From Desulfomonilia bacterium (GTDB taxonomy: Bacteria > Desulfobacterota > Desulfomonilia > UBA1062), in contig JBEKDT010000001.1 of the NCBI GenBank assembly GCA_050014195.1, forward strand, positions 256,001-320,000: a stretch of 64,000 bases of DNA, in the 5' to 3' direction. The translations under genes were made by a program, and so were the position numbers. Shown here one piece after another: positions 13,067-44,668 of the stretch. The notes beneath the pieces were generated by a model that was given only the letters and a program-made list of their open reading frames with translations, did no database searches and was not told the origin of the DNA. Each line of letters starts with the position of its first letter. The stretch's first letter is position 1.

Positions 13067-13141
13067 GGCGGCATAGCCAAGTGGTAAGGCGACGGTCTGC
13101 AAAACCGTTATTCACCGGTTCAAATCCGGTTGCCGCCTCCA
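13067..13141 (+). tRNA. tRNA-Cys(GCA)
   Basis: Acceptor stem GGCGGCA/TGCCGCC, D arm with GGTAA, anticodon arm ACGGT-CTGCAAA-ACCGT (GCA at 13099-13101), T arm GGTTCAAATCC, encoded CCA end. Confidence 0.97.
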
Positions 13142-13554: not shown

Positions 13555-14715
13555 TTATACAGATATTTCTTTAAGTTTAGCCAAGTATAATATTCCCTCA
13601 TTTAATGTATTAAATGTGACATCGGCGCATGCATGGATCATTGCTAAATACTTTGATATCTCATCATTTGATTTAGATTTCTCATCTACAAAAATAATAT
13701 GTTTTCCAAGTGCCTTCGCATATCCTATTTCCAAAGCTAAAGCATAACCCCCCGGATTATTTTTTTCTAAGTAAGCAAAAATGAGATCAGATTTCCGAAT
13801 AGCTTGAAGATCCCAATTTGTATACTGAAGAGTCTCTGATAATTGATGGTTGCGAGGATCAAGAAAACTTAATGAAGGATTTAATTTTATAACATCACTT
13901 TGCCAATTTGATGTAAATCCCCCAGCTAAATATATAACCATATTTTTATTCTCTTTAGGAGCTTCGTTACGAAGGCTATCCACTGCCATGCTGAAAGGAA
14001 TAGTTAATGCCCGCTTGTTAAATTCATATCTTCTGTCTAGAAATATTATAAAAAGAAACAACATAAACCATGCATACATTGTACTGTAGTTTATTGATAA
14101 AATGCTATCGTTGCCAAATATACTAGTTAGCCACCATACCAACAATAGTATGATTATTACAGTAGCAATACCTTGACTTAGTAATGAAAGGAACATGAAA
14201 CGATAAGTTAAATCTCTATCTATCCCAGGAATACTCATTGCGACATTTCGTAAAGAATGTAATTTACTGATTGAGTTACTAAAGTTCATGTTTTTTGTTA
14301 GTTCTAATGGCATTCTCTCAATAAAATATTTAACAGAAGGATCATCAACAAATTCATTAGACCATACTTCTTCTGGCACTAAGGAAGAAGGGAGTACCTT
14401 ATAGATATCAGGAAGAAACTTGAACTTGCATAATAAGAATTTGTTTAGCTTTATAATATACTTTAAAATAAAATTTATAGGCCGGATTACCAGCCAATTA
14501 CCGAAGCTAGTAATACCATTACCTAATACATATGCTAAAATTATAAAAAACCATATTTTTGCTGCCTCTCCGAGGCCACAAGTAATTATTAAATGTTGAA
14601 ACATTTTGGGGAGTAGAATCCCAATACCAAGCAAAAGAATTGCTCCAGGAATTATTGAGCCAATAATATCGTTAAAAAATCTTAAAGAGATCGTTAAAAC
14701 ATCTTCTGATTTCAT
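13555..14715 (-). CDS. Multi-TM protein fused to a C-terminal nucleoside 2-deoxyribosyltransferase-like (NDT) domain
   Basis: About four hydrophobic helices, then IYLAGGF...FLDPRNH...WDLQAIRKSDLIFAY...ALEIGYAKALGKHIIFV; RBS AGGAGG; very AT-rich. Confidence 0.8.
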   Translation of the reverse strand: MKSEDVLTISLRFFNDIIGSIIPGAILLLGIGILLPKMFQHLIITCGLGEAAKIWFFIILAYVLGNGITSFGNWLVIRPINFILKYIIKLNKFLLCKFKFLPDIYKVLPSSLVPEEVWSNEFVDDPSVKYFIERMPLELTKNMNFSNSISKLHSLRNVAMSIPGIDRDLTYRFMFLSLLSQGIATVIIILLLVWWLTSIFGNDSILSINYSTMYAWFMLFLFIIFLDRRYEFNKRALTIPFSMAVDSLRNEAPKENKNMVIYLAGGFTSNWQSDVIKLNPSLSFLDPRNHQLSETLQYTNWDLQAIRKSDLIFAYLEKNNPGGYALALEIGYAKALGKHIIFVDEKSKSNDEISKYLAMIHACADVTFNTLNEGILYLAKLKEISV

Positions 14716-14880: not shown

Positions 14881-16098
14881 TTATAATCCCCTACCTGTCT
14901 TACAAGGCTTAATTTTGTTCATAACTTCATGCAAAGCATCAATTGATTCGTGTATATCTATACCTGAAGTGAATCGTCCAATACTAAACCGTATCGAGGC
15001 CCTCGCATCAGTATCAGAAAGTCCTATTGCGCGTAACACATGTGAGGGTTCTGGAATACCTGACGTACAGGCAGCACCGGTTGAGGCGGCTACAAAAGGC
15101 TGAAGTGCCCCAATAAGTTCATGCGCATCTAAGCTTCTGAAACATATATTTGCGTTGCCCGGATGCCTGAGGTCACCGCTTGCGCCGTTAATATGGATGT
15201 TTGTGGTAATGAGGTTAAGTTGTTCAATGAATTGGTCACGCAATGCACGGATCTTTATGCGTTCCATAACCGCGTCTGCTGATGTGACGAGTTCTATCGC
15301 CGCACCAAATCCAACACAAAGAGGAACAGGAAGAGTTCCGGCTCGGAGACCATTCTGTTGACCTCCACCATAGATAAGAGGTTTGACCAATCGCTGAACA
15401 TCGCGTCTAATAAATAGAGCACCAATGCCTTTCGGCCCATAAAGTTTGTGAGCAGATAGGCTAAGAAAATCGACATCGAGCTCATTAACATCTAGCGGCA
15501 TTGCCGTGAGGGCTTGTACAGCATCTGTATGTATTAGTGCTCCAACATTTCGGCAAAGTGATGTTACATCTTTCACGGGCTGAATAGTTCCGATCTCGTT
15601 ATTTACAGTCATTACTGAGACAAGTAATACATCAGTGGCTAAACGTTCTTCTAATATATCAAGTCGAATGATGCCATTATGATCAACAGGCAATTGTTCA
15701 ATAACAAGATCAAACTGTTCACTAGCTGCATAAGCAGCTGCAAAGACAGATTTGTGCTCTATTGAGCTGACAAGGATTCGACGACGGTCTGCACTTGCAT
15801 ATCCCGCAGCACCTATGATTGCTAAATTATTCCCCTCTGTGGCCCCTGATGTAAAAATGATCTCATCAGGATCTGCAACGATAGCAGATGCAATTTTTTG
15901 GGTTGCTTCATCTATTGCAGCATTTGCCTCCCAACCAAAGGCATGGTCAGAAGAATGTGGGTTACCGGGATGATCAAAAAAGAAAGGCTTCATGGCTTCA
16001 ATCACCCGTTGATCAACGGGCGTCGAAGCCTGATAGTCCATGTATATTCGATTCTTTATCAATTTACACATCTTATCAAATTTAGGGCACTCGCTCAT
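14881..16098 (-). CDS. sspA: Cysteine desulfurase (DndA/SspA/IscS family)
   Basis: YMDYQASTP, FTSGATE, EHKSV, VNNEIG, HTDAVQ, SAHKLYGPKG (PLP Lys), STGAACTSG (catalytic Cys); divergent from sspBCD; start likely 16098 or 16071. Confidence 0.88.
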   Translation of the reverse strand: MSECPKFDKMCKLIKNRIYMDYQASTPVDQRVIEAMKPFFFDHPGNPHSSDHAFGWEANAAIDEATQKIASAIVADPDEIIFTSGATEGNNLAIIGAAGYASADRRRILVSSIEHKSVFAAAYAASEQFDLVIEQLPVDHNGIIRLDILEERLATDVLLVSVMTVNNEIGTIQPVKDVTSLCRNVGALIHTDAVQALTAMPLDVNELDVDFLSLSAHKLYGPKGIGALFIRRDVQRLVKPLIYGGGQQNGLRAGTLPVPLCVGFGAAIELVTSADAVMERIKIRALRDQFIEQLNLITTNIHINGASGDLRHPGNANICFRSLDAHELIGALQPFVAASTGAACTSGIPEPSHVLRAIGLSDTDARASIRFSIGRFTSGIDIHESIDALHEVMNKIKPCKTGRGL

Positions 16099-16113
16099 TT
16101 CACTTATTAAGAA

Positions 16114-16186
16114 CTGGAGATAGCCTCCAGGTTCCTTGACAATACTCAAGGCATTATGTATTGTCAACCTGGATGAAACCTCCAGG
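16114..16186. promoter_or_regulatory. Symmetric bidirectional sigma70-type promoter with two flanking CTGGA-N7-TCCAG palindromes
   Basis: Plus strand TTGACA(16136)-17 nt-TATTGT(16159); minus strand TTGACA(16167)-17 nt-TATTGT(16144); palindromes at 16114-16130 and 16169-16185. Confidence 0.72.
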
Positions 16187-16195
16187 AAAGAACTT

Positions 16196-17167
16196 ATGGT
16201 AAGAGGCCCTCTTTATCAAGCCGAGAGCAAGCCCCTTTTTTCAGGACATGAAACCTTTCCTCTCCGGTATGGTTGGTTAAAAAAAGTATATGATACTATT
16301 TCAAAAAATTCTAACGACCCTGACAACAAACATATTTTCCTAAAAGACGACGCAATAGCCCGTTTTGGTGTTGGAAAAAACATGGTAGCATCAATGCGAC
16401 ATTGGGCGATGTGTTGTGGAGTGATTACTGAAGACGAACCGACGGGGCATCTTATCCCAACAGCATTTGGTGATTTTCTCTTCGGCCCAAGAGGAAATGA
16501 TCCATATTTAGAGAATCTTGCTTCTATCTGGCATCTTCATTGGTACCTTTGCTCCTGCGATAATAGCCGGCCGCTTAAAACAACATGGTTTTGGGTCTTC
16601 AATCATTTTAATGAAGTTAATTTCAAAAGGGATGATCTTGTCGAAGGACTAATGAAACTTGCCAAGGCTCGCAATTGGCAACGTGTTTCAAGGACAACAG
16701 TTCAACGAGATGTTGAATGTCTTGTTAGAATGTATGAGACACGAACGTCAAACAACATTGGGACAGTTGAGGACAACTTAGAATCTCCTATGGCAGAGCT
16801 TGGTCTCATTCGTGGTATTAAAGGTTATTTTCACCTTGTCCGTGGTCCCAAACCAACACTTCCTAATGGCATTTTTACTATGGCCCTGGACTCCTTTTGG
16901 AACCATATTGGTACTTCACACTCCATCTCTTTCGAAATGATCGCTCATGAGCCTGGATCACCCGGACGAATATTCCTTCTTGATGAATCAGACATAATAG
17001 ACCGTTTACTTGTTCTTGAAAATTTAACGCAGGGTACTCTTAGATGGTCGGAGACAGCAGGATTGAAGCAAGTTCTTCGAGATCATCCTCTTGGTGAAAA
17101 AGACCGACAAACACTATTGGTTAATGATTATCGGGAATCGCACCATCGGAAGGAGGCGTTCCGATGA
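16196..17167 (+). CDS. sspB: DUF4007 family protein (SspB-like)
   Basis: FSGHETFPLRYGWLKK, FGVGKNMVASMRHW, DPYLE, ESPMAELGLI, WSETAGLKQV; start moved to ATG 16196, downstream of promoter and RBS. Confidence 0.85.
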   Translation: MVRGPLYQAESKPLFSGHETFPLRYGWLKKVYDTISKNSNDPDNKHIFLKDDAIARFGVGKNMVASMRHWAMCCGVITEDEPTGHLIPTAFGDFLFGPRGNDPYLENLASIWHLHWYLCSCDNSRPLKTTWFWVFNHFNEVNFKRDDLVEGLMKLAKARNWQRVSRTTVQRDVECLVRMYETRTSNNIGTVEDNLESPMAELGLIRGIKGYFHLVRGPKPTLPNGIFTMALDSFWNHIGTSHSISFEMIAHEPGSPGRIFLLDESDIIDRLLVLENLTQGTLRWSETAGLKQVLRDHPLGEKDRQTLLVNDYRESHHRKEAFR

Positions 17168-20100
17168 GCCTTTCTGATCTTGTTCACGTTGCTAGCCGGT
17201 TTCAACGCTCAATCCGCATAGATACGGATCTTCATGATTCGAAGATACTTGAAGGATTTGTTTGTCCAAGATCATCAGCATATGTGCTCCTTACAATGGC
17301 CCAGCACATTGTGGATACAGGCCACACGGCATTCACATGGACCGGTCCATACGGTAGTGGCAAATCAAGCCTAGTTGTTGCTTTAAGCGCACTTCTTAAT
17401 GGTAATTCCACACTACAAAACCAAGCTGTGGCTATTGTTGGAAAAAACATTACAGACACTCTATGGAAAGCCTTACCTCTTAAAAAGAAAGGGTGGCGTA
17501 TACTTCCTGTTGTTGGTCAACGTTCCGTTCCAGCAGAAGTTATTGGTAAAGCACTTATTACAAATGGCTTTATTAAAAAGAAGGATGTAGGAACCTGGAC
17601 AGATGATCTCGTGATTTCTCTTCTGATCAAGCTAGCCAAAGAGCGTTCCAATATATATGGCGGATTAATTGTCTTCCTCGATGAAATGGGGAAGTTTCTT
17701 GAGGGGGCTGCTCAAGATGGTGTTGATATCTACTTTTTTCAACAACTTGCTGAAATAGCCGTTCGAAGTAAAGGCCGCCTTCTTGTTATTGGTGTTCTGC
17801 ATCAAGCTTTTGAGGAATATGCACAGCGATTAACTCGTGATCAACGTGATGAATGGGCAAAAGTCCAAGGTCGTTTTATTGATCTTATTGTTAATACTGC
17901 AGGTGAAGAACAATTAGATCTGCTTGCCCGAGCTATTCAGAGCGATTATTCAGCCAAGCATCTAACATCTTTATGCCAAACGGTTGCGAATGTAGTAAGA
18001 GCTGGCAGGCCAAGTGCTGCTATTGATATGGCAATCACTTTAGAGCGTTGTTGGCCCCTTCATCCAGTAGTAGCGTGCCTACTCGGACCTATCTCTCGCC
18101 GACGATTTGGGCAAAATCAACGCAGCTTGTTTGGTTTTCTGAACTCGGCTGAACCTTTCGGGTTCCAAGACTTCCTTCACAATGCCAACGAGAAAGATAT
18201 CTTTGGTCCGGATCACTTATGGGACTACCTCCGAGTTAATTTGGAGCCTGCAATCATGTCTTCCCCAGATAGCCACAGGTGGTCTATAGCAGTGGAGGCA
18301 ATCGAACGTTGTGAGACTATGGGAGCATCTATGGTCCACATCCAACTTCTGAAGACTATAGCTCTTTTAGATCTTTTCCGTGAGCGATCAGGGTTAAGTG
18401 CAACCTATGACTTGTTAACAGATTCTGTACTAGGAAAGGTCTCTAATACAGAAGTGATTGATATTCTCAAGCAACTTCAATCCTGGTCATTAATTATTTA
18501 TCGTAAACATCTTGGTGCATTTGCTATTCATGCTGGAAGCGATTTTGATCTCGATCACGCTTTAAAGGAAATGCTTGTCTCTTTTCAAGATGTGGATTTC
18601 CGAGAACTACGTGCATTAGCAGGATTACAGCCTATCTTAGCAAAACGACATTACCACGAAACGGGAGCTCTTCGATGGTTTGACGTTGACCTTGCACCCC
18701 TCACTGATGTGACGACACATATATCTATAGAATCCTCCTCCAACGGAGCTATTGGCCGCTTTCTGCTTGTTATACCAACTGCAAATGAATCAAAATCTAT
18801 GGCTTCTCAAATCTGTCAGGCTGTTGTCCATACATCGAGTGAGAATGTTGTAATTGGGTTATCTACTGCTTCCTGGCGAGTGATAGATTTAGCTCGAGAG
18901 TTTATTGCTATCACAAAAATTAGCGAAGAACGCCCTGAACTGAGCGGAGATCCAGTAGCACGACGTGAAGTATTCGCCCATATAGCCGATGTCAGATCAC
19001 GATTAGAAGCAGAACTCCAAAAGATGTTTGATACTGCAAATTGGTATCGCTCTGGTGTTGATCCAGTTCGATATAGCTATTCTGAGCTTAACACTTTGGC
19101 CTCAAACATAGCAGATACTATGTATAGTCAAGCTCCAAAGCTTCCCAATGAACTACTAAATCGAAAAAAACCCTCATCGAATGCTGTTGCTGCTCAGAAA
19201 GCATTACTGAAATTGATGGTACAGCATGAGGGCGAACCACGTCTCTCAATTCGAGGATTTCCTGCAGAGGGTGGTCTCTTAGAGTCCTTACTCTTAAAAA
19301 CAGATCTTTACCGGTTCCTTCCAAAACGAGGCTGGCAGTTTTTAACCCCGTCAAAAAGACACGATCCATGCGGGCTACTTCCTGCTTGGAAAGCTGTAAC
19401 CGAAATCTTGAAAAATAATTCCCACCGCACTGTCTCCTTGGCTGAAATTTTTACAATATGGCAACAACCACCTTATGGAATTAAGAATGGCCTCTTACCT
19501 ATTCTCGCTGTAGCATTTCTTCTTGCCCAACGAGATAAATTGGCCTTTTATCGTGATGGCATATTCCAAGCTCGTTTTACTGATCTAGATGTTGATTACT
19601 TAACTAATGATCCATCATCGATCCAGTTTCGATGGATGGATTTATCATTCCTTTCAAGAAAATTTCTTTCGGGTCTTGCTAAGATAGTATGCGAACTTGA
19701 TAATCAGAATAGCCTTGTTCATTTGGAACCAATCGATGTGGCACGTGGGCTCGTAGGTATTTTTGAGAATCTCAGACCATGGGTGAAGAGGACTAGTCGC
19801 CTCTCTGCAAGTGCTCTCCAAGTCCGTTCAATCTTTAAATCAGCTTCGGATCCGAACAAGTTCCTGTTCGATGATATACCGGGAATATTTGGAGAGATTG
19901 ATGCGAAAGAACCAGAACTTAATATAGAGCAAGTTATTAATTGTGTTCGAGAAGGTCTCTTTGAACTGATTCAGGCTTATTCTCATATGCTAGATAGGCT
20001 TCAACAAATGATGCTCATGGAACTTCAAGTCCCTAATACATCTCCCCAAGCATATGGTGAGCTGCGTGATCGCGCAGAAAACATTATTCAACTAACAGGG

Positions 20101-20559
20101 GATTTTCGACTAAATGCTTTTATAGGCCGATTGAGTCAGTTTAATGGTTCCGAAATGGACATTGAGGGAATTGCAAGTCTTGCAGCTAACAAACCCCCTC
20201 GAGACTGGGTCGATGCTGACCTTGATCAAGCGGGGATAGAAATTGCAGACTTAGCGCAAAGATTTATTCGAGCAGAAGCGTACGCCCGAGTGAAAGGGCG
20301 CCCAGATAAACGGCAAGCCATGGCAGTCGTTATCGGAATGGATGGGCGCCCAACGCCAGTAACAGGTGAGTTTACAATTACTGATACAGAGAGAGTTGCA
20401 GTTGATGATATAGTTGCAAAGGTCGAGCAAGCTCTTTCGAGCACAGATCAGCATGGAAGAAATATTATTCTTGCCGCACTTGCTGAGATGAGTGCCCGGT
20501 ATTTGAATGATGATATTGAGGGTCAAATATCAAAGATGGTAGCCAAGAAAGTAGGCTGA
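17164..20559 (+). CDS. sspC: Large P-loop ATPase (SspC-like)
   Basis: RFQRSIRID, Walker A GPYGSGKSS, Walker B FLDEMGKFLE, WPLHP, FGQNQRSLFGFL, PPYGIK; ATGA overlap with sspB. Confidence 0.82.
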   Translation: MSLSDLVHVASRFQRSIRIDTDLHDSKILEGFVCPRSSAYVLLTMAQHIVDTGHTAFTWTGPYGSGKSSLVVALSALLNGNSTLQNQAVAIVGKNITDTLWKALPLKKKGWRILPVVGQRSVPAEVIGKALITNGFIKKKDVGTWTDDLVISLLIKLAKERSNIYGGLIVFLDEMGKFLEGAAQDGVDIYFFQQLAEIAVRSKGRLLVIGVLHQAFEEYAQRLTRDQRDEWAKVQGRFIDLIVNTAGEEQLDLLARAIQSDYSAKHLTSLCQTVANVVRAGRPSAAIDMAITLERCWPLHPVVACLLGPISRRRFGQNQRSLFGFLNSAEPFGFQDFLHNANEKDIFGPDHLWDYLRVNLEPAIMSSPDSHRWSIAVEAIERCETMGASMVHIQLLKTIALLDLFRERSGLSATYDLLTDSVLGKVSNTEVIDILKQLQSWSLIIYRKHLGAFAIHAGSDFDLDHALKEMLVSFQDVDFRELRALAGLQPILAKRHYHETGALRWFDVDLAPLTDVTTHISIESSSNGAIGRFLLVIPTANESKSMASQICQAVVHTSSENVVIGLSTASWRVIDLAREFIAITKISEERPELSGDPVARREVFAHIADVRSRLEAELQKMFDTANWYRSGVDPVRYSYSELNTLASNIADTMYSQAPKLPNELLNRKKPSSNAVAAQKALLKLMVQHEGEPRLSIRGFPAEGGLLESLLLKTDLYRFLPKRGWQFLTPSKRHDPCGLLPAWKAVTEILKNNSHRTVSLAEIFTIWQQPPYGIKNGLLPILAVAFLLAQRDKLAFYRDGIFQARFTDLDVDYLTNDPSSIQFRWMDLSFLSRKFLSGLAKIVCELDNQNSLVHLEPIDVARGLVGIFENLRPWVKRTSRLSASALQVRSIFKSASDPNKFLFDDIPGIFGEIDAKEPELNIEQVINCVREGLFELIQAYSHMLDRLQQMMLMELQVPNTSPQAYGELRDRAENIIQLTGDFRLNAFIGRLSQFNGSEMDIEGIASLAANKPPRDWVDADLDQAGIEIADLAQRFIRAEAYARVKGRPDKRQAMAVVIGMDGRPTPVTGEFTITDTERVAVDDIVAKVEQALSSTDQHGRNIILAALAEMSARYLNDDIEGQISKMVAKKVG

Positions 20560-20561
20560 AA

Positions 20562-21398
20562 ATGAGTGAAGGGGAAAGGCATGTGCTTGGCCTATCAGGG
20601 GGGCGTGATAGCGCCGCATTGGCTGTGTACATGCGACAACACCATCCTGAACTTGACATCGACTTCTTTTTTACTGACACAGGGAAGGAACTACCTGAAG
20701 TTTATGAATTTCTCGGACGCTTGGAAGGTTTTCTGGGAAAACCAATTTTACGATTAAATCCCGACCGAGATTTTGATTTCTGGTTAAAACAGTATAACAA
20801 CTTCCTTCCCTCAGCTCAGACGAGGTGGTGTACCCGTCAGTTGAAGCTTCGCCCTTTTGAAGATTGGTTGCGTCCTCAATTGGATGCAGGGATGAAGATA
20901 TTTAGTTATGTGGCAATTCGAGCAGATGAAAACTACCGAGATGGCTATACTTCAAAAAAAGAAAGATTGACTGTATGCCTACCCTTCAAATCCGCCGGGA
21001 TTGACAAAATCGGTGTTTTAGATATTTTGGATAATGCTGGCCTAGGTCTCCCGAAATACTACGCATGGAGAACTCGCTCCGGGTGCACCTTCTGCTTTTT
21101 TCAACAGAAGATTGAGTGGGTTCGTTTATTAGAACATCACCCCGACAAATTCGATGAGGCAAAGCAATATGAGAAAACAGCAGTGGAACACTGTTCACCA
21201 TTTACATGGAGCCAAGGAGAATCGCTAGAGGCCTTATCAAAACCAGAACGTATCGAAGCCATTAAGAATGATCACGAAATGCGTTTGTCACGTTTAAAGT
21301 GTAATACCAGGCCAAATCCTTTACGGTCAGAAAATGAACCGCTTGATATTGATGACCTTTACGGGCAAGCTAAAGTATGTTTAGCCTGCCATAAGTAA
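20562..21398 (+). CDS. sspD: PAPS reductase family protein (SspD-like)
   Basis: PP-loop LSGGRDS, DTGKE, RWCTRQLK, RSGCTFCFFQ, terminal CLACH. Confidence 0.85.
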   Translation: MSEGERHVLGLSGGRDSAALAVYMRQHHPELDIDFFFTDTGKELPEVYEFLGRLEGFLGKPILRLNPDRDFDFWLKQYNNFLPSAQTRWCTRQLKLRPFEDWLRPQLDAGMKIFSYVAIRADENYRDGYTSKKERLTVCLPFKSAGIDKIGVLDILDNAGLGLPKYYAWRTRSGCTFCFFQQKIEWVRLLEHHPDKFDEAKQYEKTAVEHCSPFTWSQGESLEALSKPERIEAIKNDHEMRLSRLKCNTRPNPLRSENEPLDIDDLYGQAKVCLACHK

Positions 21399-21418
21399 TT
21401 TCCTAGGAGGACAAAAGA

Positions 21419-23056
21419 ATGTCCGGAGCCCCAGGAATCTCGATTCAAAATGTCCTTAGAAGTGCTCCGGAGAAAGCACTTCGAGACTTTGTAGGTGATT
21501 CGACGATCAATGTTTTATCAGCACTTAATCCAGACTTGGTCACAAAAGATAATTTAGTGGAGCTTGCAAATCAATCAGCATCCCCATTTGAAATTATACA
21601 GCGAAAGGCATTGCGTGATCGTCTTATTGGACTTCTTCCAATCAATAAGGCGCAAGAGCTCGCAAAAAAGATGGGTATACCTGCAGAGAGTAAGTTCCTC
21701 TATGACCGTCTTATTATTGAAGCAAACGAAAGGCGAGCAGAGTCTATTCTTCTAAGTTTCTTTGGTGTTGTCATTCCCGATCGGGCACGAGGGGCTGAAG
21801 AGGCAGCCCAAAAGGAAATATTTCCGACATATAGCTTGTTTCCTCACCAAAGAAGTGTTGTAGAGCGCGCTCTTGTTGCGTTACATGAAGATCCATACAA
21901 GACGGTGGTACATATGCCTACAGGGTCGGGTAAGACACGCACTGCGATGCATATAGTGGCTGATGTACTTAATAAGAACCCCAATCGTTTGGTGATATGG
22001 CTGTCACAGAGTGCAGAATTATTGGAGCAAGCTGCAGATGAATTTGAGAAAGCATGGGGAGCTCTTGGCTCGTTTTCCACATCAGTTTACCGTTTCTGGG
22101 GGGATCATGATCCAAACATAGAAGAAGCTCGTAAGGGGTTTCTTGTTGCTGGTCTAGGTAAGCTTCATGCTTTATCAAAGCGTGATGCTAACATGATAAT
22201 GAGGCTTGGTGATCGTGCACCGTTAACGGTTTTTGATGAGGCGCACCAGGCAATTGCCCCAACATTCAAGTCTCTTATTAATTATCTTAAAGATAAGAAG
22301 CCAGGAAACGCTCTATTAGGTTTAACCGCAACACCTGGTAGAACATGGGCAAATATAGCAGCCGATGCTGTTTTGTCTGATTTTTTCGGTAACCATAAGG
22401 TGGTCTTAGAAATTGAAGGTTACACTAATCCCGTCCACTATTTAATTGAAGAAGGGTATCTTGCTCGACCAACATTCAGAACCTTGAATGTTGACCCAGG
22501 CTTTAATATTTCAGAAAAAGATTTAAATGATATGTCCGAGGAATATGACATCCCCACCTCAGTGCTCGATAAACTTGCCATGAATGATCAGCGGAACATC
22601 CGAATTATCACAACAGTTGAGGATTTATGCCAGAGGCATAATAGAATAATAGTTTTTGCTGCAACAGTTGGACATGCTCACTTGATCTCATCCATACTGA
22701 CTTTACGTGGAACTCACTCATTTGTAATAACCGGTTATACAGATCGTACAACCCGTGAGAGTATCATTGCTAAGTTCAAAAGCAATACCTCTGAACCGTT
22801 GGTTCTTTGTAATTTTGGCGTACTTACAACAGGTTTTGATGCTCCAAAGACAAGTGCTTTAATTATTGCCCGCCCTACCAGGTCTCTGGTATTATATAGT
22901 CAAATGGTTGGCCGTGCCATTCGTGGCGAACGTGCGGGGGGCAACAAATCCGCAGAAATCGTTACAGTCGTAGACCCACAGTTGCCCGGATTTGGTGATA
23001 TTGCAGATGCATTCACAAATTGGGAGGATGTTTGGGGCGATGACAAATGCATGTGA
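21419..23056 (+). CDS. SF2 DEAH helicase (ResIII/IRC3-like)
   Basis: HMPTGSGKT, VFDEAH, GLTATP, VLTTGFDAP, QMVGRAIR; RBS AGGAGG. Confidence 0.9.
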   Translation: MSGAPGISIQNVLRSAPEKALRDFVGDSTINVLSALNPDLVTKDNLVELANQSASPFEIIQRKALRDRLIGLLPINKAQELAKKMGIPAESKFLYDRLIIEANERRAESILLSFFGVVIPDRARGAEEAAQKEIFPTYSLFPHQRSVVERALVALHEDPYKTVVHMPTGSGKTRTAMHIVADVLNKNPNRLVIWLSQSAELLEQAADEFEKAWGALGSFSTSVYRFWGDHDPNIEEARKGFLVAGLGKLHALSKRDANMIMRLGDRAPLTVFDEAHQAIAPTFKSLINYLKDKKPGNALLGLTATPGRTWANIAADAVLSDFFGNHKVVLEIEGYTNPVHYLIEEGYLARPTFRTLNVDPGFNISEKDLNDMSEEYDIPTSVLDKLAMNDQRNIRIITTVEDLCQRHNRIIVFAATVGHAHLISSILTLRGTHSFVITGYTDRTTRESIIAKFKSNTSEPLVLCNFGVLTTGFDAPKTSALIIARPTRSLVLYSQMVGRAIRGERAGGNKSAEIVTVVDPQLPGFGDIADAFTNWEDVWGDDKCM

Positions 23057-24863
23057 TGATGTTCAAAATGGAAGTGTAATTATCCCTACCAATCTTGCTA
23101 TCCGCGCAATGCGTGATAGTGGTTATCGTAATACTGCTCATGCTTTAGCAGAGTTAATAGATAACTCTGTACAAGCGACAGCAACAACAGTCGAAGTCTT
23201 CTGTATAGAGGAGATGGTCAGTGTAAACGGAAAACAGCGACGTCGGGTCACCAAGATCGCTGTTCTAGATAATGGTACGGGCATGCCACCAGAAGTACTA
23301 CGAATGGCTCTTCAATTTGGTAATGGCACTCACCTAAATGATCGATCTGGAATTGGACGTTTCGGGATAGGACTCCCGAATGCCTCCATCTCTCAAGGAA
23401 AACGAGTTGACATCTGGACATGGCAAAGCGGTCCAGACAATGCAATTTATAGCTATCTGGATGTTGATGAGATTGAAAAAGGGCAGATTCAGTTTGTTCC
23501 CGAACCGGAACATGATCCTATACCATCTGAATGGCGTAATCGAGGTAGAAGCTTTGGAACGACAGGATCTCTCGTCGTTTGGAGTAATTTCGATGATCAA
23601 CGACTAACATGGAAGAGTGCTCGGGCAACTCTTGAGAACACTGAGTGGATCGTTGGTAGGATATATCGCAAGTATATACATAAAGGTGATCTACGGATTC
23701 AGTTACGTGCTTTTGATGGAATGAATATTCTTTTCGAAAGGGATACATGCGTAAATGATCCACTATATCAAATGGCCCCATCCTCAACGCCGGCACCATT
23801 CAATAACAAACCGATGTTCGAGCAATGGGGTGAAGATGATCAAGTCTTCGATATAAATTTCAAAGGAACGAATCACAAAGTCATAGTCCGAGCTTCTTGG
23901 GCAAATCGAGAAACACTACCCGAGGACGGAACAGATCGTGGTTCTAAAGACTATGGTAAGCATGCAGGGAAGAATATTGGTGTCTCAATTGTAAGGGCTG
24001 ATCGAGAACTTGTTTTGGATCCTTCCTGGGCTATTGGATATGACCCCGTTGAGCGGTGGTGGGGTATTGAAGTTAACTTTCCTCCTGAACTTGATGAGAT
24101 CTTTGGCGTCACAAACAACAAGCAGGCAGCAACAATTTTTTCCCACATGGTCAACTTCGATTGGAAAACCGAAGCGGATCCGGGAGAGGAGTACCTTGAC
24201 TTCAAACGCCGGATCTCTGAAGAAGGTGATCATCGTGCAGATCTACTAGATATCGTTAATTACATCCGGACAATTCTCTCACGCATCCGAAGTGCATTAA
24301 GTGACCAAACTAAGGGAAGACGATCAGGGGCGAAGCGTCATGATGATACTTCTGTAGAAGACCGCGCCTCGACAAAGTTCAAGGAAAGAGCACGTTCTGG
24401 CCATGAAGCAGAATCCGACAGTGGTGTTTTTGACAAAGATGCTCAAAACGCCCTTCTGGAAGATTTGGTAACAGAAAAGAACTATGAAGAAGACACAGCA
24501 AAACAGATGGTTGAAGCAACCCTACGTCGAGGTCGAAATGTAATTTTCATAGAGTCCGCAAGCGAGATGGACGCCTTTTTTTCTGTGGAGCAAAAACCCG
24601 GCGGCATCACCCAAGTTATCTTTAATAGCTCACACCCAGCTTATGATTATCTCATCAAAACACTTGAATCAGATACTACAGAGGCAACAGATAAAGAATT
24701 AATAGGTCGTATTCAAAATGCTTCTGATACAATCTGGATGCTCTTCGCGGCATGGGCGCGACAAGAGATCGAGGACATGCCTGGGCGTGAAAAGCTACGT
24801 CGGATGCGACATGACTGGGGGCGGATGGCTCGGGATTTCCTCTCCGATGATACAGAGGACTAA
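23040..24863 (+). CDS. GHKL ATPase, MORC-like (HATPase_c_3)
   Basis: AMRDSGY...ALAELIDNS, DNGTGM, GRFGIG, TGSLVVW; later GVTNNKQ and helical tail; start placed at ATG 23040 overlapping the helicase. Confidence 0.85.
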   Translation: MTNACDDVQNGSVIIPTNLAIRAMRDSGYRNTAHALAELIDNSVQATATTVEVFCIEEMVSVNGKQRRRVTKIAVLDNGTGMPPEVLRMALQFGNGTHLNDRSGIGRFGIGLPNASISQGKRVDIWTWQSGPDNAIYSYLDVDEIEKGQIQFVPEPEHDPIPSEWRNRGRSFGTTGSLVVWSNFDDQRLTWKSARATLENTEWIVGRIYRKYIHKGDLRIQLRAFDGMNILFERDTCVNDPLYQMAPSSTPAPFNNKPMFEQWGEDDQVFDINFKGTNHKVIVRASWANRETLPEDGTDRGSKDYGKHAGKNIGVSIVRADRELVLDPSWAIGYDPVERWWGIEVNFPPELDEIFGVTNNKQAATIFSHMVNFDWKTEADPGEEYLDFKRRISEEGDHRADLLDIVNYIRTILSRIRSALSDQTKGRRSGAKRHDDTSVEDRASTKFKERARSGHEAESDSGVFDKDAQNALLEDLVTEKNYEEDTAKQMVEATLRRGRNVIFIESASEMDAFFSVEQKPGGITQVIFNSSHPAYDYLIKTLESDTTEATDKELIGRIQNASDTIWMLFAAWARQEIEDMPGREKLRRMRHDWGRMARDFLSDDTED

Positions 24864-24868
24864 TATCT

Positions 24869-25792
24869 GTGCTCGGTGAAAAGCTTCTTATAGCTGCTCG
24901 TGATGCGCAGCACGATATTACACTCATTGCCCCTTTTATAAAGGTTGATGCGTTGACGAAGGTTCTTGATAATGTTAATGCATCCATACCTCTCCGAATT
25001 ATTACAAGATGGATTCCAGCCGAAATCGCCGCAGGCATCTGTGACCTGGAAATTTTCGATATACTACAAGGAAGATCAAATTCTGAATTATTTGTTCATC
25101 CTTTTCTACACGCGAAGCTCTTCCGTTTTGATGATGTGGCCTTCTTTGGTTCAGCTAACCTAACTCGTAAAGCTCTTGGTTGGGCTGCACCTGCAAATGT
25201 CGAATTACTGCATGCCCCAAAAGATATGCTCAACGAGCTCAAAACCTTTGAAGTTGAGCTCATGGCATCTGTAATCCGAGTAGATGAGGTATATCGTGAC
25301 TTTATGTGCAAGCTAGTGGAGAAAGCAAAATCACAACCAATTGCAATAGCAGAGTTATTTGATGCAGAAACACACCAAGTGGAGTATTCTTGGCTGCCGA
25401 AATGTCGTACACCTGAATGGTTGTGGTTAGTGTACACTAACCCAGAAAAAGCAAGAACTCACATGGTTGAGTCGGCTTTTGAGGCTGCACAAATGGATTT
25501 GGTTACGCTTTACATCACACCAGGACTCCCCGAAACGTTATTCAATCAGCATGTGGCTGCTATTTTTGGAAGGATGCCATTGGTACAAGAGATCGATATC
25601 AGCGCCCGCGAAGGTGTAACAACAGATAAAGCAGTAGAGCTAATTGAAAGTGCAGCTAGTGGAGCTGAGTTACCCTATTCACCTTCTGATACTTGGGAAG
25701 TTTTAATGATGTGGCTTATGCATTTCTTCCCGCAACGTTATCGTAGAGAGCCAGAGACAGAGGTGTTTAGGCAAGGGCGTGTAATTGGTTGA
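24869..25792 (+). CDS. PLD-superfamily nuclease (single HxK motif, NgoFVII/BfiI-like N-terminus)
   Basis: IAPFIK, LHAKLFRFDDVAFFGSANLT...NVE; 5 bp after the MORC stop. Confidence 0.82.
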   Translation: MLGEKLLIAARDAQHDITLIAPFIKVDALTKVLDNVNASIPLRIITRWIPAEIAAGICDLEIFDILQGRSNSELFVHPFLHAKLFRFDDVAFFGSANLTRKALGWAAPANVELLHAPKDMLNELKTFEVELMASVIRVDEVYRDFMCKLVEKAKSQPIAIAELFDAETHQVEYSWLPKCRTPEWLWLVYTNPEKARTHMVESAFEAAQMDLVTLYITPGLPETLFNQHVAAIFGRMPLVQEIDISAREGVTTDKAVELIESAASGAELPYSPSDTWEVLMMWLMHFFPQRYRREPETEVFRQGRVIG

Positions 25793-26013: not shown

Positions 26014-27292
26014 GGGTACCTCTAAAAATTCATTAGGATCAGAGTAGATATAAAGTGCTATAATACATTGAATATGTTATATAAATAGTGGTTTTTGATA
26101 GATTTTGAGGGGGTTAAGATGAAGCAGCTTGGGTTGTTTGATATTGAGAATAGATATGACCGGATAGATAAATGCGGAGACCCGCTTATGAAGTTGAACG
26201 AGGTGATAGACTGGGAAGAGTTTCGCCCGGGGCTCATGAAGGTGAGGGAGAAAGAACGGAAGAGCAATGCTGGAGCGAAGCCGTACGATGTAGTGCTGAT
26301 GTTCAAGAGCTTGATCATCCAGTCTCTGTACAATCTTTCTGATGAAGAGCTGGAGTATCAGATGTTGGATCGGTGGACATTCATGAGGTTTTTGGGAGTT
26401 GGACCTGGGGATCGGATACCTGATGCGAAGACGATCTGGCTTTTCCGGGAGCAGTTGAAGGAGGCTGGGCTTGTAGAGGAGCTGTTTAAGATGTTTGATA
26501 GGCATCTTCAGGTGAGTGGATATGTAGCCCGGAAGGGGCAGATTGTGGATGCCAGCATAGTGTCGGTACCGAAGCAGAGGAACACCAGGGAGGAGAATGC
26601 ATTGATCAAGGAGGGCTCTGAGCCAGAGGACTGGAATGAAGCGAAGCGTCGGCAGAAGGACACAGACGCAAGGTGGTTGAAGAAGAACGGCAAGAACTAT
26701 TATGGGTATAAGAACCATGTCAATGTGGATGTGAAGCACAAGCTGATACGGGGCTATGCGGTTACGGATGCAAGCGTGCATGACTCTCAGGTTTTTGGAG
26801 ATCTTCTCCATGAAGGGAACCGGAGTAAGGATGTGTATGGTGATAGTGCCTATCGATCTGAGGAAATCCTGGAGATGCTGAAGGGGCAAGGATATCGTGA
26901 GCATCTACAGCGCAAGGGATACCGTCATCGTAAGTTAACAGACTGGGAGAAACAAGGGAATCACACCAGGTCAAAGATACGATCCCGCATAGAGCATGTA
27001 TTTGGAGTGCAAGCCATGATGGCTGGAGATCTGATATTACGGACAATAGGGATTGCACGTGCACGGGTAAAAATAGGGTTGAGGAACTTGGCCTACAACA
27101 TGTTTCGTTTCCATACGCTTGCTGCTGTCAGGTGAAGTGCGTCCAAATGGTTGGAATCATGTTACAGAGGGATCAGAAATCGCAGATTACCCCCATAAAG
27201 AATCGCTTCAGTGGCTATGATTCACAGGTAATGCATGGACAAATCAATTCCATTATAATGATTTTCAGAAAAGTGAATTATTAGAGGTGGCC
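26014..27292 (+). mobile_element. IS5-family insertion sequence (1279 bp)
   Basis: Terminal IRs GGGTACCTCTAAAAATTCA / TGAATTATTAGAGGTGGCC (16/19 match); TATA target duplication at 26010-26013 and 27293-27296. Confidence 0.9.
26119..27135 (+). CDS. IS5-family DDE transposase
   Basis: YNLSDEELE, PDAKTIWLFRE, IVDAS, DTDARW, YYGYKNH, DASVHD, GDSAY, RSRIEHVFG; RBS GAGGGG before ATG 26119. Confidence 0.93.
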   Translation: MKQLGLFDIENRYDRIDKCGDPLMKLNEVIDWEEFRPGLMKVREKERKSNAGAKPYDVVLMFKSLIIQSLYNLSDEELEYQMLDRWTFMRFLGVGPGDRIPDAKTIWLFREQLKEAGLVEELFKMFDRHLQVSGYVARKGQIVDASIVSVPKQRNTREENALIKEGSEPEDWNEAKRRQKDTDARWLKKNGKNYYGYKNHVNVDVKHKLIRGYAVTDASVHDSQVFGDLLHEGNRSKDVYGDSAYRSEEILEMLKGQGYREHLQRKGYRHRKLTDWEKQGNHTRSKIRSRIEHVFGVQAMMAGDLILRTIGIARARVKIGLRNLAYNMFRFHTLAAVR

Positions 27293-27415: not shown

Positions 27416-30400
27416 TCAAATCCTTTGGCATCCGGGTCCGATCAGGCTGCTACGCCCCCCTGTTTCGGGGATTACCTGTATCTGAGTGCTGATCCGCTCC
27501 TTCAGAGCCGTGACATGTGATATGACGCCGATCAGCTTTCCGTCCTGGCGTAGGCCGGCAAGGGTCTCTAGGGCCATTTCAAGTGCATCTTCATCAAGTG
27601 TCCCGAATCCTTCGTCGAGGAAGAGCGAATCCACACGAACCTTGTGGCTTGCCATCTGGGAAAGGCCCAATGCCAGAGCAAGGCTTACAATGAAACTTTC
27701 ACCGCCTGAGAGGTTCTTAGTCGAACGGATTTCTCCTGCCTGATAGTTGTCGATAACATTCAACTCGAGCGGTTGTGACACGTCACGTATGAGAACATAG
27801 CGATCCGTCATCTTCCTGAGCTGACGATTGGCATGCATGGTCATCATCTCAAACGTCAGGCCTTGGGCAAAATTTCTGAATTTCTTACCGTCGGCCGAGC
27901 CGATAAGTTCATGTAAGGCATCCCAACGGGTACATTCAGTTTTCTGGGCGTCAATGTTTTTGATTTTTTCCTGCTGCTTTACCCGTAGTTTTTCATTCTC
28001 GCTCAAGCTATTTATGATGCCGCCGATTTCTAGCCTTGTTTGTTTCAAGCTCGATTCGCATGAATTGATGCTTTCCTTAAGCGTCTCCAGGGGCTGATCT
28101 GTCAAATGTTTCTCTCGCTCCGCCGCCAGGGCTGCCGACTTGTCCTTCCGCCGGGCGTCAAGTTCCGTCTTCTCCCTGATCATGGCCTTCTCTTGTTCAG
28201 CGAGCCGTTCCCTCTCTTCTTCATTCATACAGGCAGACAGATAGTCGATCTCGTCTTCGAACCCAGTCCTCTTGATCCGCGCCATCAGATTTTGTTCCGC
28301 CTGTAGCAATTCGGTTGCTCGAAGGCCTGTTTTTTTTATCAGAGAATCTATCTTCTCCTTAAGGGCACTGATTTCTTTTTCTATCTGCACATGTTCTTCA
28401 CGTGCTTTTTCAAAGGCTTTATTGGCTTGATCCACTACATCCGCCAGGAGTTTTTCCTCTTGGTCGGCGTTCTTCTCCCCAAACAGATCACGGCGGGAAG
28501 CGCCCAAGGACTCATACTGTGCAATCAGATTATCGCGGTCCTTGCGCCTGTCCTCCGTATCATTTTCTAGTTTTCCCAGCAAGGCCTTGTCCTTATCAAT
28601 TCCAGCTTTTACGTCATTGATCTTTTTCTCAAGACCGTTTTTCTCTTCCTGCTTCGTCTGCCATGCATCTTTGCGCTCCGCAAGGTCTTTTAGGATGGAT
28701 TCAAGATCGGTTGAGGGGATCTCCCTGATCCCAAAAGGCTCGACATCCTTAAGCATAGTGATGCGAACTCTCTCCGTCTCTTCTTCTATGACTTCTATGT
28801 CTTTCTTCAGCCGCTCATGCTCACGACCGGCCGTATCGAGTCTATGCTTGGCGTCTTGTAGAGCCTTGACTGAGTTATCCAATTGCGTTCTTAATGCTTC
28901 CAGTACGTTTTGAGCTTGCTTATGCTTTTGGCCCATCTCTTCGGCTGCGGCTACAATTCCCGATATTTCAGCAATTCTTGCTTGAACATCTGCAATCTCA
29001 TCGTGTACTTTCCCGGCTCGATCTTCAGGGCTGGCCTTGATATTCAGTTTCAGCATGTTTTCGTCACATTGTTTTTCATCAGCATCCAGAGCTGACTTTT
29101 TCTCCTCCTGCTCTTTTTCAGCATGCCGTATATCCGCAATCGTCTTAGCTTGTCCGGTTTCCAGCTTGCTCAGCTTCTCAGAGACTCGTTTGAGTTCAGC
29201 CTTGGCTCTCTTTAAATCTTTTTCCGTTTTGTTCAATTCAGGGACATTACCCTTTGCATAGGGATGATCGATAGCACCGCACAGTGGGCATGGTTTACCG
29301 TCTTCAAGTCGCGCCCTCTCTTCTTCAAGGTCCCTGATACGACTGAGGAGAACGACTTGTGTCTCCAAATTTCCAATATTCCCTTCCAAAAGAATCTTTT
29401 TCTCGGCATGGGATTTTATCTCATCCGATACTTTCTCTTGATCAGTCGTTAATGTTTCAAGGCTTTTTTTCAGACTATCCAAGACCGAGCAAGTCTTGTC
29501 GATCCGATCAATGATTTCTCCTGTCTGTTTCAGAATACCCTCACGTTCTTTATGGGCATTATTTTCCTGATGCCACTGGCTGATCTCTCGTCCCTTGAGA
29601 GTGGCTGTGATCTTGTCGGTCAGAATCTTAAGGTCGTTTTGAGCCTTTTCAAATTCCTTGAGGGATTTTTCATGGTTGACCTCTATCGTCTTACACGCTG
29701 CAAGAGAAGACTTGTTTTCCTTGTCAGCGGCAGTAAGTGCTTTATGAGCTTTGATATTCCTTTCATCGAGGTCAAGTAGTGAAGTGAATACCTTGGAGAT
29801 TGCAGCAAGGTTTGTCTGAAGTGCGGCATCGGCAGCATTCTGTGTCAGGTAACCTAGGTTCGCTTTTAGCGCATCCTCCAATTTTTGCAGGTTCTGCAAG
29901 GCTTCATTGATTCTTATTTTATAATCCTCACTCTGCGTCGAAGCATCCGATATAGACTTCTCCTTGTCTTCAATATTCTTTTTCTGCTCGTTCATTCTGG
30001 CATCGAGGACGCGCACCTTTTTGATGACATCCGCTTCGGAACTCTGCTTTTTCCCTGCCTCATTCAGCCCTGTCTCTGCGGCCGTTTTTCTGTTCAACGC
30101 CTCTTCACAGGTTTTTCCCTTTACCGGCAGTGCGTTAAGTGCACCATCGAGTTCCTTTTTCTCGATGTCCTGCTGAGCACGCAAAGCAGCCACTACCCGG
30201 TAGTCTCCTTCGAGAGCGAGCGCCCTGCGCGATTTCTCAAGCTTCTTCCCATACGGCTCAAACGCCTGGAAGCGTTTCTCAAAATCCTCCTTCTGTTTAT
30301 CAAGTTCGCTGATTCCCTTTTCCAGGGTAGCAATGGTTTCAAGCCATGCGGTAGCCTTGCGAAGGCTTTCGAGCTGAACACCCAGTTCCATTTCAGAAGA

Positions 30401-31087: not shown

Positions 31088-31097
31088 GCCTGTTCTC

Positions 31098-32327
31098 CTA
31101 CTGCGCCATCGGATCTGCCTCATTCAGGGATACGATGATCTCCTGGTAGGCACTCAAAAGAACCGGTTGCTGATCCTCAGGGACCTCGTGCGATTGAAGG
31201 CAGCGTTTGAACACGTCGGTCACATCCAGGTTGTCAAGCGTTTCCTCCGTGTCCATGCCCTTCATAGACAATTCCAGTACCCGGTTGTTCTTAATGCGGA
31301 GGATCTCAAGGCCGGTATTTTCGATGGTCTCGTCCAACCGATCGCGCAGACTTCCTGCGATCTCATCACCTTCATAGACTATCTCCAGCCATGCACTGCT
31401 ACCTTCAGCCTTCAGGTCATTGATGGCACTTTCAATGATCTGCCAATCCCCCCGCAGGGTCTTCAGCATCTGGAACCTGGGGATGGGAACATTCGTGACA
31501 TTGGGTGCATTACCTGAAAACTCCACGAAGACTAAGCTCTTTTCCTGTTGCGCCTCTCCAAACCCGATGGGCAGGGGTGAACCTGAATAGCGTATGAAAT
31601 CAGATCCGCCCACCCTTTGTGGGACATGGAGATGCCCAAGGGCAAGGTAGTCGATGGATTCAGGGAATACATCCGATCTGACTTGGGCCAGGGAACCGAT
31701 ATAGAGTTCACGCACTCCATCACCGTCAACAGTCTGGCCGCCTGCGGCGAAAAGATGCCCCATGGCGACGATGGGTATGGGCTTCTCCATCTGTGACCTC
31801 TTCTGTTCGGCTGCTTCACACACCATACGGTAATGGGTTCTGATACCTTCTATGATCTTACGTTCCTTGTCCTCAACGCTCTCTCCGGCCTCAGCGGTGC
31901 GGATATCACGGTCCCGTAAATAAGGAATGGCGCAGACGATGAGCCGAGGCTCGTGATCTGGACCGGTCAGCACAATGAGTTCATTTGTGGGGGGGTCAGA
32001 TGCGCTTCCCACGACATGTACATTCAGAAACTTCAGGAGTTCCTTCGGGGCGTTTAAAAAAGAAGGCGAATCATGATTCCCTGCCGTCACAACTACATGG
32101 CGGTTTGAAGAGGCCGCTACACGGCACAGAAAACTGTAATAGAGTTCCTGAGCATAATTGCTGGGTGTACTGTTGTCGAATATATCTCCTGACACAAGAA
32201 GCACATCGATATCTTCGCGTTCAATAAGGTCTGCCAGCCAGTTCAGGAATGCCTCGAACTCTGCGTATCTCTTGCGTCCGTAAAGGGTGCGGCCAATATG
32301 CCAGTCGGAAGTGTGGAGAAGCTTCAT
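31098..32327 (-). CDS. sbcD: Exonuclease SbcCD subunit D (Mre11-like)
   Basis: HTSDWHIG, GDIFD, GNHD, MGHLF, ALGHLH, YSGSP. Confidence 0.95.
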   Translation of the reverse strand: MKLLHTSDWHIGRTLYGRKRYAEFEAFLNWLADLIEREDIDVLLVSGDIFDNSTPSNYAQELYYSFLCRVAASSNRHVVVTAGNHDSPSFLNAPKELLKFLNVHVVGSASDPPTNELIVLTGPDHEPRLIVCAIPYLRDRDIRTAEAGESVEDKERKIIEGIRTHYRMVCEAAEQKRSQMEKPIPIVAMGHLFAAGGQTVDGDGVRELYIGSLAQVRSDVFPESIDYLALGHLHVPQRVGGSDFIRYSGSPLPIGFGEAQQEKSLVFVEFSGNAPNVTNVPIPRFQMLKTLRGDWQIIESAINDLKAEGSSAWLEIVYEGDEIAGSLRDRLDETIENTGLEILRIKNNRVLELSMKGMDTEETLDNLDVTDVFKRCLQSHEVPEDQQPVLLSAYQEIIVSLNEADPMAQ

Positions 32328-44607: not shown

Positions 44608-44668
44608 CTTTCAAAAGCTATAGCGACAGCTTTGCTTACTGCCCATGGATTGGGCGGGGGAGGTATTG

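Follow-up and report, generated by a model that had tools for sequence, protein, structure and literature searches.

The 64,000-nucleotide stretch of contig JBEKDT010000001.1 from a Desulfomonilia bacterium (the whole of this DNA is called the window) contains a locus in which the genes of the phosphorothioation (PT) machinery SspABCD adjoin three genes coding for a superfamily 2 (SF2) DEAH helicase, a MORC-type GHKL ATPase and a nuclease of the phospholipase D (PLD) family. The locus is interpreted as a two-module PT restriction-modification (RM) system, in which the trio would serve as the PT-linked effector arm; we give this interpretation a probability of about 0.65. The trio most likely represents a new variant of PT-based restriction-modification, the parts of which are known and the combination of which with Ssp appears to be new.

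All four modification proteins were strongly recognised by PADLOC, as the first-pass annotation of this DNA had expected, and each match spanned essentially the whole model. The sspA product matched the SspA model at 6.7e-132, the DndA model at 8.6e-129 and the Pfam family Aminotran_5 at 2.1e-80, and is predicted to be a cysteine desulfurase of class-V aminotransferase fold that would act as sulfur donor. The sspB product matched SspB (2.7e-103) and DUF4007 (5.3e-85), and its in-frame ATG at 16196 is preceded by the sequence AGGAAA. The sspC product matched the entire SspC model (E=0, 1315 bits) and also BrxC (1.4e-108), and the sspD product matched positions 1-277 of the 277 positions of the SspD model (1.4e-133) as well as PAPS_reduct (3.9e-6). 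The SspABCD set appears complete by these matches and, because membership of the four families is strong, the first module (SspA and SspBCD) would be expected to write PT marks on host DNA.

Recurrence of the trio was investigated with the ATPase, whose family comprised 3634 proteins at E <= 0.001 among 8000 candidates scored. ATPase relatives were located at 505 loci on contigs of a set with one genome per species, the best 80 of which (42-68% identity; single loci are given here as L numbers) were kept and their gene content determined by tblastn with the window's proteins; the species in this survey are not independent of each other. The helicase gene was found directly upstream of the ATPase relative in 78 of the 80 loci and the PLD gene directly downstream in 56, while at least one of sspB, sspC and sspD was present in 66 and all seven genes in 36. 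Of the 14 loci in which no ssp gene was found, 11 ended at a contig edge; among all 80 loci, 51 had complete 10-kb flanks, and 48 of these carried sspB, sspC or sspD genes. As a background, 401 genomes were sampled from the phylum of the window, and 15 of them had SspD at any position. Because of the difference between these two frequencies the view that helicase, MORC and PLD genes are chance neighbours of ssp was set aside, and the recurrence of the trio in linkage with sspBCD, which the first-pass annotation had anticipated, was observed across many genomes. The ATPase family occurred in two of the 401 phylum genomes, both of which carry SspD; in genome G043 the SspD and ATPase genes are convergent and 1 kb apart. 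Neither SspD nor the ATPase family was found in two genomes of the same genus. Five of seven loci from IMG/VR had sspB, sspC, sspD, helicase and ATPase genes together with PLD-like matches (ATPase identity 36-64%); of the remaining two, one was truncated where its contig begins and the other was a weak partial match.

Gene order at the surveyed loci was variable. The order of the window, with sspA divergent from sspBCD and the three effector genes following on the same strand, was seen in 18 loci, and a convergent arrangement, in which helicase, MORC and PLD genes face sspDCB with or without sspA, in 19. A divergent order was present in L021, and in L015 and L016 the triad came first, followed by sspA-D. 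That linkage to ssp was kept in colinear, convergent, divergent and triad-first orders argues against loose co-residence, which is the core of a different explanation: that the three genes are a self-contained, PT-independent defence system, restriction-like or abortive, which merely shares islands with ssp. Operons of MORC or paraMORC ATPases with helicases and nucleases have been predicted to be restriction-like on their own, usually together with methylases, in the accessible parts of Iyer, Abhiman and Aravind (2008; PMC2292703), but the window's operon contains no methylase or other modification gene beyond ssp by its open reading frame (ORF) list and Pfam matches. Triad-only loci do exist (L049, and without PLD also L020 and L064). 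When whole genomes were searched for five loci without ssp genes, SspD was found elsewhere in three, whereas two had no convincing match to the window's SspD. The correlation between triad and ssp distances described below is weak, and DndFGH is often decoupled from the Dnd modification genes, as argued in the parts available of Rakesh et al. (2024). The proportion of full-flank loci with ssp genes within 10 kb is nevertheless higher than loose co-residence should give, and we consider a PT-independent system unlikely.

To compare the histories of the two modules, protein distances were correlated (Spearman) over 36 sets, i.e. 35 loci and the window; 45 loci with an incomplete or missing ORF were left out. 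Coefficients were 0.83-0.92 among SspB, SspC and SspD, 0.66-0.79 among helicase, MORC and PLD proteins, and 0.02-0.31 between the ssp set and the triad. In L044, L046 and L077, for example, SspD is 74-78% identical to that of the window, MORC just 45-47%. Because correlation was high within and weak between the sets, the two modules appear to have been re-paired, the cassette with differing ssp lineages, while staying adjacent, which in these comparisons looks like the pattern expected of exchangeable modification and restriction modules.

The nuclease gene was found to be exchangeable as well. In the PLD-less loci that were inspected the genes followed the order sspB-C-D, X, helicase, MORC, sspA, in which X was a nuclease-type gene. 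In L052 it encoded a full-length SspE with GmrSD_N and GmrSD_C domains (SspE model E=0, 1224 bits), in L063, L075 and L076 an SspE-like protein and in L072 a protein of the DndB family; in L065 it encoded a protein with helix-turn-helix (HTH) and HNH_4 domains, and a further small HNH protein was encoded after the ATPase. Helicase and MORC form the constant core of the cassette, while the nuclease is interchangeable between PLD and, in cyanobacterial loci, SspE, DndB-like and HNH types. The first-pass annotation had taken the trio for a restriction arm different from SspE; no SspE was recognised at the locus of the window, but elsewhere the helicase-MORC pair coexists with genuine SspE and PLD can be replaced.

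Retention of the pair without PLD in 24 of the 80 loci might also indicate that the pair assists the PT machinery or SspE-type sensors, through DNA scanning, loading or nick processing, and licenses no nuclease; PLD would then be a late addition or a suicide nuclease kept in reserve. MutL-type ATPases are known to coordinate processes directed by nicks, and the pair stands directly after the full-length SspE of L052 and after the SspE-like genes of L063, L075 and L076. The distances within the triad, however, correlate with each other and not with those of SspB, SspC and SspD, indicating that the cassette evolves as a separate unit, and in each of the PLD-less loci inspected a different nuclease-type gene adjoins the pair. 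Characterised SspABCD, moreover, modifies DNA without such partners, according to the parts available of PMC8092258. An accessory role is quite unlikely on these grounds.

Several observations weigh against the trio as a PT-linked effector arm. The linkage was determined in the best 80 of the 505 loci, the other 425 not having been seen, and three of the 51 full-flank loci had no ssp gene within 10 kb; the two genomes without a convincing SspD match to the window's query indicate that the cassette may work alone. PLD is missing from the 24 loci mentioned, most of them from Nostocales, so the trio is not universal. The correlation between PLD and SspB was 0.07, which argues against a shared sequence specificity and weakens the idea that the DNA-binding domain of PLD tracks the specificity of SspB; a weak correlation between the modules is also what is expected of unrelated neighbours in one island. 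Three loci with PLD (L015, L016 and L079) have an SspE-like gene in addition (25-27% identity), and the cassette may there act in addition to another reader of PT instead of being the only one. The assignment of the C-terminal domain of PLD to winged HTH (wHTH) folds, described below, rests on Z scores of 5.8-7.2, which lie in the chance range for helical domains. Among the datasets containing the stretch there was no RNA run, the 20 DNA datasets being peat or wetland metagenomes.

In the three effector proteins the motifs that the first-pass annotation had named (DEAH, ELIDN and HxK) were all found. The helicase contains MPTGSGKT and DEAH; AELIDN, DNGTGM and GIGRFGIGL were read in the ATPase, and HAK...GSAN in the PLD protein. 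All three genes appear catalytically intact, and the corresponding motifs are invariant across orthologues. The helicase matched the Pfam families ResIII (3.8e-23), DEAD and Helicase_C and, by sequence search of the PDB, RadD (6jde, 3.4e-22) and SauUSI (7clg, 4.3e-13). Its first ~130 amino acids (aa) are poorly conserved across 38 orthologues and are followed by a motor resembling RadD, Rad25 and type III Res, in which GKT, DEAH, TATPGR and QMVGR..R are invariant. The PADLOC model PbeA was matched partially (6.5e-22, model positions 240-439 of 672), and weak matches to type IV models were also obtained. Helicase ORFs of ~360-370 aa, lacking the Walker A region, were observed in the Nostocales loci L057, L059, L064, L065, L071 and L074. 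The HTH and HNH_4 ORF of L065 lies just upstream of such a shortened helicase, and these shortened forms may have been disrupted by an inserted HNH gene or may have decayed.

The ATPase matched HATPase_c_3 (2.6e-22) and, by sequence, the GHKL domain of human MORC2 (5.4e-5). Its structure was predicted with a local distance difference test score (pLDDT) of 83.3, and the region of about residues 12-428 was most similar to SMCHD1 (Z 19.6, root mean square deviation (rmsd) 4.9, 344 residues aligned), followed by MORC3 (Z 18.6, rmsd 3.9, 304 aligned), E. coli MutL (Z 18.1, rmsd 3.7, 291 aligned) and MORC2 (Z 16.8, rmsd 4.0, 322 aligned); Foldseek agreed with these matches. The model thus depicts a two-domain GHKL and S5 protein of MORC/MutL/SMCHD1 type; 'MORC-type' is used here as a descriptive label that does not distinguish MORC from paraMORC1-5 of Iyer et al. 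(2008). Residues E38, N42, D77, G79, G81, G104-G111 and the S5 lysine K361 were invariant in 51 ATPase sequences, and the C-terminal ~180 aa lie beyond the matched module. An identity as MzaB was rejected, since the NCBIfam MzaB model scored 64.3 bits against a cut-off of 850 and the PADLOC MzaB match (1.8e-13) spanned ~100 residues of the GHKL domain only. A protein with HEF_HK and HATPase_c domains is encoded two genes upstream of the helicase-MORC pair in L020 (4896-6359), where PLD had been lost to transposases; HEF_HK proteins have been linked to paraMORCs (PMC8011034).

The PLD protein matched PLDc_2 with 22.6 bits, which is under the 27-bit cut-off, and no relative was found in the PDB by sequence search. 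Its predicted structure (pLDDT 92.9) consists of two parts. Residues 1-149 adopt the PLD fold and were most similar to SauUSI (Z 17.0, rmsd 1.9, 140 aligned), and further to the HKD nucleases NucT (Z 15.7), Nuc (14.4), BfiI (13.6) and the R subunit of NgoAVII (12.7). The protein holds a single HKD motif of the type HxK(x)4D...GSxN, and dimerisation would therefore be needed to form one active site; H81, K83, G94, S95 and N97 were invariant in 43 orthologues. The helical residues ~171-307 gave middling matches to N.BspD6I (Z 7.2), BrxA (6.3), SspB (5.8) and FokI (5.8), and the last ~85 residues matched ArsR-type wHTH proteins with Z 6-7. These matches form a coherent group, and a tandem-wHTH-like DNA-recognition module in the C-terminal half of the model is a lead. 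The idea that this domain is a copy of that of SspB was dropped, because comparison of the two families with hhalign gave a probability of 0.09%, with which the low PLD-SspB correlation agrees. The full-length PLD protein formed 728 clusters at 50% identity (E <= 1e-30). In a profile search of 1.84 billion representatives almost all of the matches listed were 295-330 aa long, and no fused forms were found among the searched proteins of 539-2000 aa, which is weak evidence. The DISARM protein DrmC was rejected as an identity for PLD; it matched at 1.8e-6 over ~90 residues only, and DrmA and DrmB were unmatched.

From these features a mechanism can be proposed in which the PLD subunit would bind DNA through its C-terminal tandem-wHTH-like domain and the SF2 motor would translocate on DNA. 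The MORC/MutL-like ATPase would dimerise upon ATP binding and act as a licensing clamp that joins two single-HKD subunits into one active site; host PT marks would set the state of the complex, and unmarked incoming DNA would be cut. This specific clamp-and-license mechanism, of which the first-pass annotation had put forward a simpler form (a translocase and a MORC clamp that license PLD on unmodified DNA), is tentative. A rather doubtful extension of it is that helicase and MORC might be a portable mark-reading engine that licenses any nuclease plugged into it, a counterpart in defence of MutL-UvrD-MutH, with a MutL-like GHL clamp and an SF2 motor as the readers of single-strand PT marks. 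If true, SspE and SspFGH would be joined by a third class of Ssp effector, mechanistically distinct from both, and for the first time a function would be assigned to a bacterial MORC-type ATPase that is linked to a defined epigenetic mark.

The opposite polarity, a type IV-like enzyme directed against foreign DNA with PT or another modification, as SauUSI is against modified cytosine, is suggested by the closest fold match found for the nuclease domain, which is to this very type IV enzyme, and by the weak matches of the helicase to SauUSI and to type IV models. A nuclease that targets PT and shares an operon with a PT writer would, however, attack its host, and the tight linkage to sspBCD fits better with a partner of a self-marking system, so that a type IV activity is very improbable.

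An effector arm linked to PT was compared with the systems already described. SspABCD-SspE is known from Vibrio cyclitrophicus FF75 and E. coli 3234/A. It has the same modification module as the window and its effector gene likewise lies directly downstream of sspD, but the effector of the window is composed of a pair of ATPase motors and an HKD nuclease, three proteins in all. The PADLOC models for SspE, SspF and DndFGH did not match the helicase, MORC or PLD proteins, so that the first-pass annotation had been right to expect no SspE or SspF among them. SspE models found no match among the ten proteins around the locus either, while the L052 protein, used as positive control, scored E=0, and no protein with GmrSD_N and GmrSD_C (DUF262/DUF1524) is encoded at the locus. 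The single GmrSD_N protein of the genome belongs to a type I RM operon at a distance of ~140 kb; its best match was to Orf5 (1.8e-196; Orf5/HEC-06 models), and SspE was matched at 2.7e-19 over ~100 residues. In this operon (L081, G000:C1:128000-142000; M, S and R genes) three genes are inserted between S and R, namely a PDC-M04A/B pair and a gene for a 707-aa DUF262 protein matching Orf5/HEC-06.

The second system, SspABCD-SspFGH, is that of Vibrio anguillarum FF-93 (PMC8092258), for which the parts available describe a Walker A motif only in SspF and an FtsK-like C-terminus in SspH; the words helicase, PLD and histidine kinase are all absent from the text of PMC8092258. Both systems have a three-gene effector cassette that adjoins sspBCD on one strand throughout, but the trio of the window consists of helicase, MORC-type ATPase and PLD and lacks a match to SspF. 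The SspF models PDLC02793 and PDLC02796 gave no match anywhere in the genome, whose completeness by marker genes is 100%; they gave none in 14 control genomes either, so that their sensitivity is uncertain. No FtsK/HerA-type domain, the feature of SspH, was present in the Pfam matches of the three proteins.

HKD nucleases and SF2 helicases also meet in PbeA and SauUSI. In the accessible parts of Rakesh et al. (2024) HKD and SF2 helicase fusions (PbeA) are described directly downstream of Dnd modification genes, with no GHKL partner mentioned there, and PbeABCD consists of the HKD-SF2 fusion PbeA, PbeB, PbeC (a CxC ABC ATPase) and PbeD (DndE-like). The cassette of the window has both activities, but HKD is on a separate protein two genes away, with the MORC-type ATPase encoded between, and the nuclease has its own helical DNA-binding-like domain; moreover, the partner is Ssp and not Dnd, and equivalents of PbeB, PbeC and PbeD are lacking. 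Of the Pbe models, for which the first-pass annotation had predicted no match, PbeC and PbeD found none in the operon and PbeA matched the helicase only weakly and partially. CglI/NgoAVII-type enzymes combine a PLD-nuclease R subunit with a separate SF2-like motor subunit in ATP-dependent restriction, according to the parts of the literature available. They share with the window a split HKD nuclease with its own DNA-binding domain and a separate SF2 motor, but the DNA-binding domain of the window is helical instead of a B3-like barrel, the helicase is not of DEAD-Z1 type by any match, and the MORC ATPase is added.

Methyl-directed mismatch repair by MutL-UvrD-MutH provides a further parallel, as there a GHL ATPase, a helicase and a latent nuclease read a mark on one strand. 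The window combines the same three kinds of protein, and its ATPase model includes the MutL N-terminal domain among its closest structural matches; it differs in lacking a MutS-like sensor, in the HKD fold of its nuclease, in an SF2 instead of an SF1 helicase and in being for defence rather than repair. The MutL analogy for MORC and paraMORC had already been drawn by Iyer et al. (2008), as far as that paper was available.

The same paper predicted operons of MORC or paraMORC ATPases, Rad25-like SF2 helicases and nucleases including HKD to be restriction-like, and its accessible parts pair these operons with DNA methylases and list Nitrococcus mobilis, Erythrobacter and Roseovarius in a figure legend. 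Members of the cassette were indeed found in Nitrococcus mobilis Nb-231 (L004) and Erythrobacter (L050 and L070). The likeness extends to the GHKL and S5 ATPase, the Rad25-like SF2 helicase and the nuclease; the cassette of the window, however, is tied to ssp and not to methylases, and PAPS reductase, cysteine desulfurase and phosphorothioation are unmentioned in the text of PMC2292703. In the parts available of the 2026 BREX paper of Rakesh et al., MORC is unmentioned. A literature search, which excluded Makarova et al. (2011) and Xiong et al. (2020), both possibly relevant to priority, revealed no link of helicase-MORC-PLD to Ssp. The combination had been annotated as undescribed; this stands for its link to Ssp, of which nothing was found in print, but the type of effector had been predicted in 2008.

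The cassette is common and lies almost always beside sspBCD in the surveyed loci, and its parts are well understood and offer clear mutational targets. It is therefore tractable for studying how PT marks gate an ATP-driven nuclease, what role bacterial MORC-type ATPases have, which bears on the origin of eukaryotic MORC, and how restriction modules swap their nucleases. To our knowledge, two Ssp effectors are known, SspE and SspFGH, and the reading of one-strand backbone sulfur is poorly understood. Present defence-finding models would call such loci Ssp modification genes without an effector.

The seven ORFs and their junctions were found at window positions 14881-25792 as first annotated and are listed together with neighbouring features below. 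The plus-strand run comprises six genes, all overlapping or separated by gaps of at most 20 nt, and sspA is divergent from it.

Table 1. Genes and other features of the locus and its surroundings (window positions; junctions from ORF coordinates and sequence)
Feature	Positions	Strand	Description	Junction with next gene
tRNA-Cys	13067-13141		End of the core genes	
386-aa protein gene	13555-14715	-	C-terminal nucleoside 2-deoxyribosyltransferase-like domain	
sspA	14881-16167	-	Listed ORF, 428 codons; likely start 16041 (sequence read)	Divergent from sspB
Divergent intergenic region	16042-16195		154 bp between sspA and sspB	
sspB	16196-17167	+	DUF4007 DNA-binding/nicking subunit; listed ORF 16136-17167	4-nt overlap
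sspC	17164-20559	+	Large BrxC-like P-loop ATPase	2-nt gap
sspD	20562-21398	+	PAPS-reductase-family ATP pyrophosphatase	20-nt gap
Helicase	21419-23056	+	SF2 DEAH helicase/translocase, 545 aa	17-nt overlap
MORC-type ATPase	23040-24863	+	GHKL and S5, 607 aa; ATG at 23040; listed ORF 22992-24863	5-nt gap
PLD nuclease	24869-25792	+	HKD/PLD, 307 aa	
Insertion sequence (IS) transposase	26095-27135	+	DUF772 and DDE_Tnp_1; 300 bp after PLD gene	
SbcC-like and SbcD-like pair	27416-32327	-	SbcC-like protein 1235 aa	
AAA_13 ATPase	33095-35719	-	874 aa	
VirB4-type ATPase	44645-47071			

In the region between sspA and sspB two perfect palindromes were read from the sequence, CTGGAG-N5-CTCCAG at 16114-16130 and TTGACAATAC-N12-GTATTGTCAA at 16136-16167. 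The second places TTGACA, a -35-like hexamer, on each strand so that the two face both ways; these are consensus matches only. The arrangement fits a candidate bidirectional promoter/operator through which both transcription units might share regulation. A regulator for it was not obvious at the locus, where no DndB-like gene is present.

The locus probably sits in a large variable or mobile island next to tRNA-Cys. The core genes lpxK and two lipid A acyltransferase genes end at this tRNA gene, and from about 12 to 44 kb (~32 kb) the G+C content is 0.38-0.47, down from ~0.54. Two genomes of the same genus share the flank and tRNA-Cys, where their synteny with the window ends, and the 15 kb downstream of tRNA-Cys in these genomes contain no match to the window. 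This loss of synteny, the drop in G+C and the IS transposase behind the PLD gene are the reasons for assuming a variable island. A second copy of the tRNA-Cys 3' end was not found within the window, nor was the right border of the island. Transposases follow the cassette also in L020 and L049, and a VirB4-type ATPase is encoded further downstream in the window.

Other genes of the region may add to its defence content. The deoxyribosyltransferase-like domain of the 386-aa protein encoded between tRNA-Cys and sspA was matched by Pfam at 1.5e-9 and no PADLOC model matched the protein; among the 80 loci it had a single relative, encoded immediately behind PLD in L035 (46% identity over 123 aa). 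The gene may code for another accessory or be a defence gene in its own right. The SbcC-like protein gave weak matches to LmuB, and several ORFs without a family follow the SbcC/D-like pair; the pair, the AAA_13 ATPase and these nearby ORFs may represent more defence genes of the island.

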